Positions 1 to 4,901 of a DNA stretch of 20,000 nt are shown here, piece after piece (positions within the stretch are counted from its first letter, which is position 1; each line of letters opens with the position of its first letter). This DNA comes from an uncultured virus (IMG/VR IMGVR_UViG_3300050821_002105) (lineage: Duplodnaviria; Heunggongvirae; Uroviricota; Caudoviricetes). The notes beneath the pieces were generated by a model. It was not told where the DNA came from. It saw only the letters and a list, made by a program, of their open reading frames with translations, and did not search any database. The position numbers and the translations under genes were made by a program. The stretch lies in IMG/VR virus record IMGVR_UViG_3300050821_002105; one strand, 5' to 3'.

Positions 1-10
1 ATACTGGCTA

Positions 11-261
11 GATTTAGGTGGGTGGCGGGATTGGCTACCCGCAACGTAGGACTCAGAGTTGCCTATGATTGGTTACCTACGAACTACCTAGTTCTGCTTG
101 TCGATTTTCAACCCTTGCAAGGGGTTTTACTACCCTATCCCTCAGGCGCTAGCCCACCAGTCAAGCGTAGTTTTCCTCCGACCTAAGCGTGTATTATCCC
201 CCAGCCTGAGCTATAAGGATTCTTCTACCACACCCTATGGGTTGCCGTCGCTACCCAAATC
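11..261 (-). ncRNA. Candidate structured ncRNA (~250 nt), family unassigned
   Basis: Begins ~7 nt downstream of a consensus leftward promoter (269-297). The 5' end GAUUUGGGU (261-253) pairs with the 3' end ACCUAAAUC (19-11). Internal helices: CCUUAU-AG-CUCAGGC / GCCUGAG-GG-AUAGGG, CCCU-UGCA-AGGG, GUUGA-AAA-UCGAC, GAACU-AGGU-AGUUC, CGUAGG/CCUACG and GCGGG-UAGCCAAU-CCCGC. No credible ORF; lies next to tRNA genes. Confidence 0.7.
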
Positions 262-268
262 AATTACA

Positions 269-297
269 ACCTTAACACATTTCGCTCTGGTTGTCAA
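269..297 (-). promoter_or_regulatory. Sigma70/SigA-type promoter for the candidate ncRNA
   Basis: Minus strand: TTGACA (297-292), 17 nt, TAAGGT (274-269), with extended -10 TG. Confidence 0.8.
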
Positions 298-298
298 G

Positions 299-382
299 TC
301 CGTCGTGTAGGGATCGAACCTACCGTGTTACTAGAACGCCAGATTTACAGTCTGGTGCCACCACCATTGGGGCCTACGACGG
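299..382 (-). tRNA. trnY: tRNA-Tyr (anticodon GUA), long variable arm, C1-G72, CCA not encoded
   Basis: Acceptor CCGUCGU/ACGACGG plus A73, anticodon arm CCAGA-CUGUAAA-UCUGG, variable arm GUU-CUAGU-AAC, T arm GUAGG-UUCGAUC-CCUAC. Confidence 0.93.
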
Positions 383-546
383 ATGAGTGGGTGGTTGCCT
401 GGCCCTCTTAACGAGGCAGATGCCGCTCCCACTTATTCATGGTATTTATCTATGATTCCTGCCTCTGGGGCTGCCAGGCGGTTTTCTCTGTCAATGTGCA
501 TATAGGTCAGCCGAAGCTGAACAGAAGGTTAAAAACCCTCTCTGAG

Positions 547-617
547 CGGGGAATGAGCTAATCGAAAACTCGCTAACGGGTTTGGAAGCCGTTGTACTAC
601 CACTATACGAATTCCCC
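547..617 (-). tRNA. trnW: tRNA-Trp (anticodon CCA), non-canonical pairs, CCA end not encoded
   Basis: Acceptor GGGGAAU/AUUCCCC plus G73, D arm GUAU-AGUGGUA-GUAC, anticodon arm ACGGC-UUCCAAA-CCCGU (C31-C39 mismatch), T arm GAGUU-UUCGAUU-AGCUC. Confidence 0.85.
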
Positions 618-627
618 AAGGAACGCT

Positions 628-656
628 ACTATAACATAGTTGCCGCTGAATGTCAA
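628..656 (-). promoter_or_regulatory. Leftward promoter immediately upstream of tRNA-Trp
   Basis: TTGACA (656-651), 17 nt, TATAGT (633-628), extended -10 TG. Confidence 0.85.
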
Positions 657-705
657 GCCCCCGGAAAGATTTCTTTCCTTTTACAATCCGGTTGCCGACA
701 AAACA

Positions 706-735
706 AGTATAGCACATGCAACCCCTATTTGTCAA
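706..735 (-). promoter_or_regulatory. Second tandem leftward promoter
   Basis: TTGACA (735-730), 18 nt, TATACT (711-706), extended -10 TG. Confidence 0.75.
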
Positions 736-786
736 TAGGTAGAGGCAATATTTTTATTACGATCATGTTAACGCAGCCTGAGATTC

Positions 787-815
787 ACCTTAGCATAAAA
801 CGTCCAGCTTGTCAA
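787..815 (-). promoter_or_regulatory. Third tandem leftward promoter
   Basis: TTGACA (815-810), 17 nt, TAAGGT (792-787), extended -10 TG. Confidence 0.75.
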
Positions 816-844
816 CCCTTTTTCTACAAATCCCATAAACTTAC

Positions 845-873
845 TTGACAAATCAGTATTTCCCTGCTATACT
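845..873 (+). promoter_or_regulatory. Rightward promoter for ORF 918-1523, divergent from the RNA cluster
   Basis: TTGACA (845-850), 17 nt, TATACT (868-873), extended -10 TG. Confidence 0.85.
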
Positions 874-892
874 GCCATAGAGCACATAAGTG

Positions 893-904
893 GAACATAT
901 GTTC
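893..904. promoter_or_regulatory. Putative LexA (SOS) operator, Gram-positive type GAAC-N4-GTTC
   Basis: Perfect palindrome GAACATATGTTC between the predicted transcription start (~880) and the start codon (918). The flanking bases are G/A rather than the consensus C/G. Confidence 0.55.
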
Positions 905-917
905 ACGGGGATGGTAT

Positions 918-1523
918 ATGCCGCACAAGATTAGCAAGGGCGTTCAGAATAGAGTCACTGGTATCGTCAAGCAGCTAGACAATATAGCAAAGTACATAGG
1001 ACTGATTGATGAGCCGCAAATCACCGAGCTACTCAGGCGAGCGTCTATCGGGTCCACTCCGGATGGATTTGGTCCCGGCAAATCCCTTGGAGAAGGTGGT
1101 GGGCGCGGTGGGTCCACGGAGGACGGCATCTCTCGGCCTACTGAGTCTATGGCGCTCAATCAGCGCCGAACTGTAGACCCGGTAAAGGCACAAGCGAAGA
1201 AGATCCAAGACTGGATTTGGAACGCTGAAGCCGATTTAGCTGACGCGGTGGACGCTTTAAAGTATATAAACATCCAGCTAGAAGAAGAAAAAGAACGTCC
1301 GACAACAGTTCCATGCCTTGTTTGTCAGTTGCTTCCCGCCACCAAGAGAGGAATGTGTGATAGCGATTATCACGATTGGTGGAAGCACGGAAAGCCTGAC
1401 TTTCAGGCATGGGTTTTCTTTAAAACAAAGCAGCGAAATCAAGAGAACCTACTGCTGGTTTCTGAATGTCCACCCCCTAGTGATGGCAATAAGGCCATCC
1501 GCGGACCCCACAAAGCAAAGTAG
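918..1523 (+). CDS. Hypothetical protein with a Cys-rich (putative Zn-binding) C-terminal domain; possible late-gene regulator
   Basis: 201-aa ORF after a consensus promoter, with a GGGG RBS, helical N-terminal part, Gly-rich linker and CxxC-x10-C motif. The regulator role is inferred from position only. Confidence 0.75.
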   Translation: MPHKISKGVQNRVTGIVKQLDNIAKYIGLIDEPQITELLRRASIGSTPDGFGPGKSLGEGGGRGGSTEDGISRPTESMALNQRRTVDPVKAQAKKIQDWIWNAEADLADAVDALKYINIQLEEEKERPTTVPCLVCQLLPATKRGMCDSDYHDWWKHGKPDFQAWVFFKTKQRNQENLLLVSECPPPSDGNKAIRGPHKAK

Positions 1524-2142: not shown

Positions 2143-2338
2143 CGACCCGGAGTGCAGCCTTGAAGACTGCAAGCATCCGGCAGAATACGCTATTTATCCA
2201 GATCGCTTTCGGCGCATTGAGTTGGCCGTCTACCTCTGCACGCCACATCGCGATACGGCAAACGAGCGCGTCGTCGGCAAGCAAGAGCTATACCAGGTGG
2301 CGTGTCAGATGATAAGAGAAAGCCTTGGCTACAGCTAA
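2123..2338 (+). CDS. Small hypothetical protein with a Cys/His Zn-finger-like motif
   Basis: C-x4-C...C-x2-H pattern; overlaps both neighbours in operon fashion; start uncertain. Confidence 0.6.
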   Translation: MGASLSNDPECSLEDCKHPAEYAIYPDRFRRIELAVYLCTPHRDTANERVVGKQELYQVACQMIRESLGYS

Positions 2339-4901
2339 AAAGAAGCGCGCCCCCGATCATTTCAGCAATGTCCTTACTGAGACGATCAACCCTAGCGTTA
2401 TAGATGCCTTCACTCCCTTAGGATACAACCCCACACCTAAGCAGAAAATCTTTCACGATCTTTCTCAACAGAAGGTTCACGCTATCCTTTACGGTGGCGC
2501 CCGAGCCGGTGGCAAGAGTTGCGCCATGACGATGGAGGCGATCCATTGTGCTGTAAACTTTCCCGGCATGAAGATCCTCTGCCTCCGACGCACTTACCCA
2601 GAGCTAGAAGAGTCTTTCCTAGCTGAGCTAAAGAAGCGTCAGTACGCTGCCCCGCTGGGTGGCAAGTGGAACCAGACAGACAAGAAGCTTAGGTTTGCCA
2701 ACGGCTCTGAGATAAACTTCTCCTACGCCGAGACAGAGATCGACATCTCCCGCATCCTTGGTGGTGAATACCAACTCATCGAGATTGATGAGGCTTCTAG
2801 AACGCTCCCTATCATCATAAAGCACTCCGAAGAGAACCTGCGATCTGGAAGCCCAGCCATTCCGGTGATGGGACTACGGCTTGCTACAAATCCCGGAGGC
2901 ACCGGGCACTGTCTACCATATGGTGACGTTCTAACCCCCAATGGTTGGCGTCGAATTGAAGACATTACTACAGGTGATCCAGTATACACCGTGCGACCTG
3001 ATGGCGTGATGGTCGAAACCACCGTATCTAGGACGTTCGAATACGACTGGGATGATGACATAATTGAAGTCAACGCTCGCGGGCTTTCTATGGCGATGAC
3101 TCCAAATCATAGAGTGGCGAAGGTTGGCGGCACAAAGACCAATCAAAAGACAAAATTCTCGTTGGTCCCTTTTGAAGAACTCCCCGGTCAGGCTACCATC
3201 TTGCGTTCTGTAGAGTGGCAAGGCAAGCCGTTGCCATCGTTCACTCCAGATCCAATAGAGACAAGAAAGCGCAAGTTGGAACAACCAGCAACGCTTTCTG
3301 GTGATCTATTTGCAGAACTCTTGGGCTGGTACCTATCAGAAGGTTCGGTAGTACGCTCTGGTCCAAAGGCTTTCGACATAGCTCAATCGAAACCAGACGG
3401 CAGAGACGCGATACAGAAGCTTCTAGATAGGTGTGGGCTTCAAGGGACTTGGGGTGAAAAGTCAGTAAGGATTTACGCTGCTGATTGGTGGTGGTATTTC
3501 TCGCAGTTTGGTTATTCCTATGAGAAATTTATTCCTGACTGGGTAAAGGCTGGGAGTCGAGAAGATCTTCAGATTCTCCTGAACGCGCTCATGGCTGGTG
3601 ATGGGCACTGGCAGTCTAGAACTGGTGGTGCATACTATACGATCTCTAGACAATTAGCCGACGATGTTGCAGAGATAGCCGTCAAACTCGGCTATCTAGT
3701 GTTAGTAACTGAGTTTCAGAGGCCAGATAGAGTTGGTCCTAGTTTTACTGTAAACATTAAGAAGGTATTGTCTGGGGGGAGTGAACTCCTTACTGGGAAT
3801 CATCTTTACGACGTAAAGACAATGACCCAGCGTTCTTCTAACATTAGAAGAAACCATTATACTGGTAAGGTCTACTGTCTTGGCATAGATGATACCGAGA
3901 CGTTTATCGTTAGACAAAACGGATCAGTCTGGGTAAGCGGCAACAGTTATCTCAAAGAACGTTTCATCAAGCCAACAGAGCGCGGTCAGCATCTCGCTAT
4001 CGACGCCGTTGGACGCCGAGTGGCGTTTATCCCTGCGCTCTACACAGACAACCCGTACATCAATCAAGAACAGTACAAGCAACAGCTTGACGCGATTGAT
4101 GATCCTGCTCGTCGTGCTGCTATGCGTGACGGCGACTGGGACGCCCAGGTTGGTCAGTTCTTCGAACAGTGGAGTCATTTCAAGCACGTTATCGACAGAC
4201 ATTGGGATCTCCCGATGGAGTGGCAACGTTACTGTGGTATTGACTACGGTGTTCACGCTCCATATGCCGCCGTCTGGGCGGCTGTAGATAACGATGGCAG
4301 AATGTGGGTTTACCGTGAGCAGTATGCTCGCGGTGTAGATGCGCGTTCACAAGCCATGAATATTCTCGAAGCCGAAGAAGCTGCTGGCGAGTACGAAGTG
4401 ATACGAGTTGCCGACCCTTCCATGTGGGGCAATCGTGGCACGCCAATGAGTATTGCTGATGTGTATGGCTTAGAGGGTTGTGGCATCATGCAAGCTGACA
4501 ACAACCGTCCTAACGGTTGGGCGCGGTGCCACCACTTCTTAAATGATGGACCAGCTTGCGAATATCACACCGAGATGGGCTGGGAAGAGTGCCCAATGAT
4601 GCACGTCTTCGGTGATGAGTGTCCTAGCTTTGTGGAAACAGTTCCAGAGCTACCGCGCCATCCGCTCAACCCAGACGACGCCGAGACTAAGAACGTAGAG
4701 GACCACATCCCAGACGCCTGGCGTTACCTCTGCATGACCGCTGGAACCAGCGGTGGACCTGTTATTTACGACAATGACGCAAGGGAGGCTACGTCAGCGG
4801 ACGTGCGCCAACTCCACGAAGAAGAAGGCGCAGCCTACATGCCAGAAAGCGCTAGGCAAATAGGCCCCTTCGTGGTTGGCGACTTGCGAATGAACCTCTG
4901 A
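2325..4901 (+). CDS. terL: Terminase large subunit (intein-containing precursor; ~513 aa after splicing)
   Basis: Walker A YGGARAGGKS, Walker B LIEIDEA, coupling motif ATNP, nuclease motifs GIDYG and DHIPDAWRY; located upstream of portal. Confidence 0.96.
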   Translation: MATAKKKRAPDHFSNVLTETINPSVIDAFTPLGYNPTPKQKIFHDLSQQKVHAILYGGARAGGKSCAMTMEAIHCAVNFPGMKILCLRRTYPELEESFLAELKKRQYAAPLGGKWNQTDKKLRFANGSEINFSYAETEIDISRILGGEYQLIEIDEASRTLPIIIKHSEENLRSGSPAIPVMGLRLATNPGGTGHCLPYGDVLTPNGWRRIEDITTGDPVYTVRPDGVMVETTVSRTFEYDWDDDIIEVNARGLSMAMTPNHRVAKVGGTKTNQKTKFSLVPFEELPGQATILRSVEWQGKPLPSFTPDPIETRKRKLEQPATLSGDLFAELLGWYLSEGSVVRSGPKAFDIAQSKPDGRDAIQKLLDRCGLQGTWGEKSVRIYAADWWWYFSQFGYSYEKFIPDWVKAGSREDLQILLNALMAGDGHWQSRTGGAYYTISRQLADDVAEIAVKLGYLVLVTEFQRPDRVGPSFTVNIKKVLSGGSELLTGNHLYDVKTMTQRSSNIRRNHYTGKVYCLGIDDTETFIVRQNGSVWVSGNSYLKERFIKPTERGQHLAIDAVGRRVAFIPALYTDNPYINQEQYKQQLDAIDDPARRAAMRDGDWDAQVGQFFEQWSHFKHVIDRHWDLPMEWQRYCGIDYGVHAPYAAVWAAVDNDGRMWVYREQYARGVDARSQAMNILEAEEAAGEYEVIRVADPSMWGNRGTPMSIADVYGLEGCGIMQADNNRPNGWARCHHFLNDGPACEYHTEMGWEECPMMHVFGDECPSFVETVPELPRHPLNPDDAETKNVEDHIPDAWRYLCMTAGTSGGPVIYDNDAREATSADVRQLHEEEGAAYMPESARQIGPFVVGDLRMNL
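2910..3944 (+). mobile_element. Intein with LAGLIDADG homing endonuclease (345 aa, TerL residues 196-540)
   Basis: Starts CLPYGDVLTPNGWRRIEDI, block B MTPNHRV, LAGLIDADG-type helices LLGWYLSEGS and LLNALMAGDGH, block F VYCLGI, ends VSGN before Ser+1. Removing it restores NPGGTGH-SYLKERF. Confidence 0.95.

Follow-up and report, generated by a model that had tools for sequence, protein, structure and literature searches.

What is the RNA of about 250 nt on the minus strand at positions 11-261 of this DNA? The window, the whole 20,000-nt stretch of uncultured phage DNA analysed here, had been given a sequence-only reading that proposed an unannotated structured RNA with its own promoter at the end of a phage tRNA cluster, and left open a kinship to raiA-motif or ROOL RNAs. 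We find that it is a real RNA and not a new family: it is a divergent, enlarged relative of manA, one that works like manA and is not a formal member of RF01745. The evidence supports a discrete and structured non-coding RNA on the minus strand that has a promoter of its own, and most of the claimed novelty is lost because the RNA is a full-length relative of manA that scores below the family threshold.

The Rfam manA model (RF01745) is matched over its full length, 1-192 of 192 positions, by window 255-15 (-) with 41.8 bits and an E-value of 3.2e-9, short of the gathering cut-off of 55.2 bits. A scan at gathering score calls tRNA-Trp alone and not the manA-type RNA, which is seen with an E-value threshold (7 Rfam matches in all at E up to 10); the cmscan comparison originally recommended thus returns manA end to end, but not at gathering score. 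Our model R1, built from 14 other manA-type RNAs with the window left out, scores window 259-13 at 69.3 bits, with the next match in the 20 kb at 8.3 bits; a small circularity enters through one member, L192, which a pattern derived from the window had retrieved. When used as query in a search by sequence alone, the window RNA recovers cyanophage manA over its full length (best E 1e-4), and all conserved manA motifs are present in order across the full model. The middle 100 nt do not align to RF01745, which together with the score under the gathering cut-off would suit an unrelated family that merely resembles manA; the ordered motifs and the agreement of two models with the sequence-only search have largely refuted that reading already, and we regard it as extremely unlikely.

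Kinship to raiA or ROOL does not hold up, as neither they nor GOLLD are matched in the Rfam scan or in single-family searches. raiA (RF03072) gives 0 of 1 record at E<=1 and does not appear among the Rfam scan matches; ROOL (RF03087) gives 0 of 1 in a single-family search run without a positive control, is absent from the Rfam scan, and has a length of ~570 nt compared with 250 nt; GOLLD (RF02032) has no match in either search. Like the window RNA, all three are large structured RNAs of unknown function; unlike it, they are described by models of 416 (GOLLD), 574 (ROOL) and 209 (raiA) positions that find no match here.

Table 1. Features of the manA-type RNA, its surroundings and selected relatives (window positions unless a record is named; paired strands are separated by a slash).
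Feature	Position	Strand	Remarks
manA-type RNA, ~250 nt	11..261	-	RF01745 and model R1 matches, RNA contigs
Promoter-like site	269..297	-	TTGACA 297-292, 17-nt spacer, TG-extended -10 TAAGGT 274-269; function inferred
tRNA-Tyr(GTA)	298..382	-	ends at the -35 hexamer of the promoter-like site
tRNA-Trp(CCA)	546..617	-	first tRNA of the cluster
P0, end-closing helix	261-253/19-11	-	9 bp, one G-U; pair probability 0.33-0.41
P1 hairpin	256-250/245-239 (239..256)	-	family GACG loop, one A-A mismatch
P2, long-range helix around the core	235-231/24-20 (20..235)	-	homology and fold
P3	228-227/192-191 (191..228)	-	flanks the conserved GAA...UAA internal loop
P4 hairpin	219-215/201-197	-	loop contains CUCAG 210-206
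P5	188-183/91-86 (86..188)	-	by homology, 6/6 pairs; pair probability 0.04
Enlarged peripheral domain within P5, ~100 nt	86..188	-	carries the extra length
Peripheral hairpin	125-122/114-111 (111..125)	-	7-nt loop with palindrome UUGCAA 120-115
P8 stem	81-76/50-45 (45..81)	-	interior contains CUGAG 56-52 (P4-loop partner) and GGC 63-61
P9 hairpin	42-38/29-25 (25..42)	-	family UA...AAU loop, shortened to 8 nt
Circularly permuted tRNA-like element	window 8-1; L131 797-868 (+)	- in window	begins 2 nt past P0
C3PO manA-type RNA	L248 795-984		unannotated, between tRNA-Trp and tRNA-Ser; below Rfam cut-off
P1201 manA-type RNA	L249 773-959		unannotated, beside or between tRNA genes; below Rfam cut-off
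manA-type RNA of L022, 262 nt	L022 1300-960	-	identical in L124; own promoter, terminator-like hairpin, no tRNA within 1 kb

The core folds as in manA (Table 1; the P and L numbering is our own), with P1, P2, P3, P4, P5, P8 and P9 all able to pair. The at least six further helices expected earlier are exceeded in number, and several do include G-U pairs. Over 18 aligned sequences, 93% of core cells are paired, compared with 40-47% in slid controls, and 37 of the 42 pairs carry double changes; the model had been built with 14 of these 18, which tilts the count towards the structure. P2 is paired in 100% of cells, with double changes at three of its five pairs. Covariation, which the sequence-only reading had named as a test, is therefore present in the core helices across manA-type sequences, but without a close full-length homologue, none having been found by our searches. 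The centre of the P9 loop has 3 nt versus 5-7 in manA, and the conserved 3' tail is present.

Folding energy is not unusual relative to shuffles (z -0.22, and 0.06 in a second test; plus strand z 0.27), and six cyanophage-type manA members give z of -1.4 to -2.7. In the free ensemble the manA-like P2 and P5 are improbable (pair probability 0.03-0.04), and constraining the RNA to the complete manA fold costs 4 kcal/mol relative to the free minimum, or 11 with the tertiary strands open. P5 is preferred over the minimum-energy helix 187-182/146-141 because the latter is broken at 186 in a near relative from soil run X6, whose contig does not reach the P5 partner. The 9-bp helix proposed to close the RNA exists and is rare, since only 3 of 1000 shuffles yield an end-joining helix of this kind. 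Four bases of its 5' strand, however, also belong to the conserved P1 hairpin, with only the outer 5-6 bp compatible with P1, and the probabilities of P0 and P1 are about 0.4 and 0.6. A related sequence said to occur twice is indeed present as two 11-mers at 77-67 and 39-29, no more than expected by chance, since 164 of 1000 shuffles contain an 11-mer repeated with no more than one mismatch.

Tertiary contacts are best seen between the P4 loop and the P8 interior, which can form 5 bp in the window RNA (210-206/56-52). Among 10 representatives, scored at fixed offsets, the mean is 5.4 bp for loops of the same RNA and 3.5 for cross pairs (2 of 200000 permutations); an earlier version, which picked loops automatically and wrongly for L013 and L196, gave 54 of 40320, and the windows in both tests were chosen after the pattern had been seen. 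Two records retrieved after the pairing idea form 8 and 6 bp. The pairing is kept by different letters in each subgroup, may equal L3-L8' of a recent cryo-EM preprint (10.64898/2026.07.01.735769), and occurs as the same CUCAG/CUGAG pair in 3 of 36 manA seed rows examined from PMC2864571. Taken alone, the 5 bp of the window RNA are not significant (p 0.08-0.14), and a second candidate partner for the P4 loop, of 6 bp, lies at 146-141. The L8-L9 contact amounts to 3 bp (p 0.64), with a 5-bp alternative partner at 154-150, and for L5-L7 there is a UGGU at 159-156, the sole ACCA of the RNA being at 73-70, inside P8 and not in the usual L7 place.

The palindromic loop of the peripheral hairpin 125-111 is predicted to form a self-duplex of -24.7 kcal/mol; a palindromic hexamer with at least four flanking pairs is found in 5 of 13 other representatives, and such a loop alone is weak evidence. 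The only near relative, a 151-nt contig in soil run X6 that is 90-95% identical, by eye preserves P3 thanks to an A-to-G change at 192 that leaves a wobble pair, and the 180-166 hairpin through another wobble change, and shows two compensatory pair changes in hairpin 125-111, with the same palindromic loop, at a loose contig end.

The surrounding DNA is that of a phage: its plus strand encodes terminase, portal, capsid, sheath, tube and tape-measure proteins (12 of 20 proteins have PHROGs matches). All 7 listed runs containing it are from soil; the capsid has named relatives from Streptomyces and Ca. Dormibacteria at 52-55%, and the best cultured phage reaches 26%. Window 1-1500 is found at full identity in record G001, the continuation of which (L131) is identical to the window over 804 nt and, beyond the window edge, adds 19 tRNA genes and a tmRNA. 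The supposed end of the cluster is thus an effect of the window edge, and a canonical T arm starts just beyond it (L131 806-822). tRNAs and the tmRNA fill the ~1 kb between the manA-type RNA and the first plausible protein gene downstream, and no terminator-like site is found at the 3' end of the RNA. That the RNA is not a tmRNA is confirmed, as RF00023 has no match at 11-261 and the phage's own tmRNA sits at L131 1373-1741 (+), where it scores 48.2 bits and was overlooked by ARAGORN.

Several other features of this DNA were recorded. The terminase large subunit (window 2325-4901, +) is split by a ~345-aa insert, residues ~197-543, that is intein-like in appearance. Divergent promoters lie at window 628-873, those on the minus strand (815, 735, 656) facing the tRNAs and that on the plus strand (845) facing a 201-aa ORF. 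The tRNA-Trp/tRNA-Tyr spacer (383-545, -) holds several hairpins, with a Fibrobacter-1 match at chance level (E 9.2). In L131 we also see an 8-bp-stem hairpin between the permuted tRNA-like element and tRNA-Ala (885-926, +) and, at ~1160-1305, tRNA-Lys- and tRNA-Pro-like units whose T loops are unusual by eye and which ARAGORN and Rfam overlooked. An ORF of HNH type, its motif recognized by eye, lies within the tRNA clusters of L131 (1753-2319, +) and L044 (~4190-3740, -), at differing positions.

A start of its own is plausible for this RNA. The promoter-like site, missed by a consensus promoter scan, follows a pattern common to the phage's other promoters and predicts a start at ~261-263 (-), in line with the ~262 of the sequence-only reading. 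On the cluster strand of L131, five of nine TTGACA hexamers have TANNNT at exactly 17 nt; the -10 hexamer TAAGGT recurs at window 815, the first 13 nt of the site are shared, letter for letter, with a perfect-consensus promoter at L131 4119, and a near-identical promoter precedes tRNA-His. Soil metatranscriptome contigs cover the RNA in all four runs examined, which were chosen with window 1-1500. The X5 contig spans only 12-250; that of X4 runs from 247 to 145 nt beyond the window edge, into tRNA-Ala, and so spans both the RNA and the permuted element; that of X3 runs from 343, within tRNA-Tyr, through the tmRNA; and that of X6 covers 48-229, with no other cover in 9 kb. The stops at 247 and 250 in X4 and X5, from two studies, are a weak hint of a 5' end. 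Positions 344-1200 are without contig cover in all four runs, which is uninformative; coding regions are also covered in X3, X4 and X5, and DNA in the RNA libraries is possible. The proposed discrete ~250-nt transcript is therefore backed by RNA contigs in four runs, one of them at 12-250, but the contigs carry no strand, end or level. It seems that the RNA is made in its own right and is not the switch of a neighbouring gene.

How widely such RNAs occur was addressed with motif, sequence and model searches. A 3' motif drawn from the window and cyanophage S-CREM1 retrieves 34 loci from viral contigs, 15 with manA above the cut-off and 3 below, and a 5' motif retrieves 46, including two further divergent copies, L192 and L196. 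The latter led to copies in the Corynebacterium phages C3PO (47.2 bits) and P1201 (40.9 bits); phage Cruella shows the same blastn match as these two. The sub-threshold RNAs (L192, L013, L022, L196, C3PO and P1201; 36.7-52 bits with RF01745, all below the cut-off) share the core and the tertiary pairing with the window RNA, and L192 also its core length, but differ in their peripheral domains, and none is a close homologue; blastn and nhmmer give no link to them stronger than to cyanophage members. Fourteen of 16 manA-type representatives start right after a tRNA, the window RNA and L022 having a promoter instead. The RNA is an accessory unit, because it is absent from the syntenic relative L044, which has the same Trp-Tyr-Ala order, and none of 80 portal-related records, most of them fragments, has manA above the cut-off, with G001 as positive control.

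Other searches add little. No match is returned by blastn of window 1-300 against phages and plasmids, by an exact 24-mer scan of viral contigs (0), or by the portal as single query (0 loci), and a second 3' pattern yields 42 loci with no new manA-type member. A metagenome pattern scan finds five loci, two of them identical to the window and one to L022; a genome scan finds 12, with one weak 20.9-bit match and one real copy (L134), identical in sequence to that of S-CREM1; and R1 over 151 genomes of G054's class, with 15 candidates scored per genome, finds the known copy and a 19.7-bit partial match. L134 belongs to an Acidimicrobiaceae bin (G054), and as its manA and flanking tRNAs match S-CREM1 it is probably mis-binned phage DNA. 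Discarded candidates comprise the three loci of a first relaxed pattern, none of them manA, the other two metagenome loci, judged by eye to be chance and without a manA match, and a 15.4-bit R1 match in L110 that by eye falls within terminase coding sequence.

Immediately downstream of the RNA lies the circularly permuted tRNA-like element, in the order T arm, loop-closed acceptor, D arm and closing stem, with T stem 5/5, acceptor 7/9 (two mismatches) and D stem 3/3 pairs. This permuted arrangement of T arm, loop-closed acceptor and D arm is that of YrlA Y RNA (RF02553) as described in PMC4201824, from which the element differs in having no GNCGAA motif, no RF02553 match and no Ro60 gene in the 27% complete record. 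YrlA of M. smegmatis is cleaved by RNase P and gains CCA (PMC4201824). With this precedent one could envisage a single longer RNA, a manA domain joined to a tRNA mimic with a YrlA-type head, which RNase P could open to give a manA RNA with a T arm and CCA, an adaptor to tRNA-binding proteins. The well-paired mimic 2 nt past P0, the presence of both parts on the X4 contig, and an acceptor 3' strand that also pairs 8/9 with the 5' end of the manA-type RNA speak for it; yet that long-range pairing has a probability of 0.0 versus 0.85-1.0 for the local acceptor, the acceptor has its two mismatches, the X5 and X6 contigs end at 12 and 48, and such an element follows none of 15 other representatives (from 53 nt or tRNA maps; by annotation for L248 and L249). 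We hold the composite RNA to be quite unlikely.

Y-RNA-like signals are seen elsewhere. L044 has, at ~4864-4380 (-) after tRNA-Ala, a YrlA-like RNA with a GNCGAAG motif, T arm, closed acceptor and D arm, and three further Y-RNA-like modules (4713, 4570, 4396); it has no RF02553 match, and the 33% complete record has no TROVE gene. The tRNA clusters of G012, G044 and G050 give sub-cut-off YrlA matches (best E 7e-7) without TROVE genes, a signal that tandem tRNAs can mimic. A T-arm/D-arm pattern found nine loci, all read as adjoining ordinary tRNAs.

The manA family was placed in possible 5' UTRs by Weinberg et al. 2010 (PMC2864571), a location that applies neither to the window RNA nor to the above-cut-off member of S-CREM1. 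A manA has since been detected in transcriptome data of a tRNA- and tmRNA-carrying Bifidobacterium megaplasmid, in a paper that notes the tRNA adjacency (PMC10832533), so that tRNA-adjacent manA is already known in print. The preprint (10.64898/2026.07.01.735769) shows by cryo-EM that five manA RNAs assemble into closed, pentamer-based oligomers via kissing loops, among them RNA-only decamers and a 60-mer cage, gives no biological role for them in the text available, and describes GOLLD and ROOL as RNA-only multimers; the words 'tRNA' and 'in vivo' are absent from its main text. The window RNA shares with manA the P1 GACG loop, P2, P3 with GAA...UAA, P4, P5, P8, and P9 with UA...AAU and the 3' tail, all in the same order, the P4-loop/P8-interior pairing, and a site among phage tRNAs like those of S-CREM1 and the Bifidobacterium megaplasmid (PMC10832533). 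It departs from manA in length (~250 nt versus 172-224 in 36 seed rows examined from PMC2864571), in the enlarged peripheral domain with its palindromic loop, the short L9 and the extra end-closing helix, in L5-L7 and L8-L9 contacts that are not evident in their usual form, and in having its own promoter in a soil phage, without abutting a tRNA and with no protein gene downstream. A promoter-led, enlarged soil-phage form of manA was not found described in the literature searched, the coverage of which leaves out most subscription papers.

What, then, does the RNA do? The likely explanation overall is that the tRNA/tmRNA cluster of this phage includes a free-standing gene for a divergent manA-type RNA of enlarged size. 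We infer, with good confidence, that its sigma-70/sigma-A-type promoter would start a read-through stable-RNA transcript at ~261-263, with this RNA as its first unit, and that the 3' side of the RNA would be trimmed to the end-closing helices near 11-19 so that a stable RNA of ~250 nt accumulates. By analogy with the five manA RNAs of the preprint, there is an even chance that the core is locked by the P4-loop/P8-interior pairing and that peripheral loops join copies into closed oligomers. The job is the least certain part: judged from location and reasoning alone, the most likely, and still doubtful, is that of a putative stable trans-acting decoy or scaffold that would help the infecting phage to sustain its own tRNA and tmRNA supply, for instance by engaging host proteins that cut or bind RNA.

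The read-through seen in X4 and X3, with the RNA at the head of the transcript, and the 14 of 16 representatives that directly follow a tRNA would equally suit an element acting in cis within the stable-RNA precursor, as a leader that protects the 5' end or aids tRNA/tmRNA maturation and has no role after release. L022, with promoter, RNA and terminator and no tRNA, does not fit such a leader, nor does L044, which keeps Trp-Tyr-Ala without the element, and the tertiary pairings are more intricate than a leader needs; we consider it unlikely. A riboswitch or other cis-regulatory element that attenuates the downstream tRNA operon would accord with the published 5' UTR placement (PMC2864571) and could exploit the overlapping P0 and P1 as alternatives, but this reading is weakened because there is no protein gene for ~1 kb downstream, the 3' end has no terminator-like site and most relatives are tidily placed between tRNAs, all of which makes it very unlikely. 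The patchy distribution of the RNA, its near-zero folding z and weak L8-L9 pairing, and an HNH-type ORF 1 kb downstream could instead betray a passenger, decaying or selfish, that has lost its function and travels from one tRNA cluster to another. Against this stand intact core helices, an intact promoter, RNA contigs in four runs, and the near relative that keeps its pairs through two wobble and two compensatory changes, and a passenger appears highly improbable. On the best reading this manA-type RNA is free-standing and probably assembles with itself. Bolder, and rather unlikely as a whole, is the view that manA RNAs are not riboswitches and are free-standing phage RNAs that form cages in infected cells. 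In that view the soil variant would be produced in nature from a promoter of its own and would have rebuilt its contact surfaces, with a self-complementary loop, maintained by compensatory change, serving for two-fold contact; it may also be attached to a tRNA mimic that recruits host tRNA-handling proteins.

The advance is moderate, tRNA-adjacent manA being in print already. manA is catalogued as a cis-regulatory riboswitch candidate. The present copy, which has a promoter to itself, shows signs of being expressed in soil and lacks a protein gene downstream, favours seeing manA RNAs as stand-alone; the family extends, below the Rfam cut-off, well past the marine cyanophages. The copies between tRNA genes in the cultured Corynebacterium phages C3PO and P1201 provide a system for testing function and assembly, and if the cage reading is true, the soil variant would represent a natural particle made of RNA alone that acts during phage infection.
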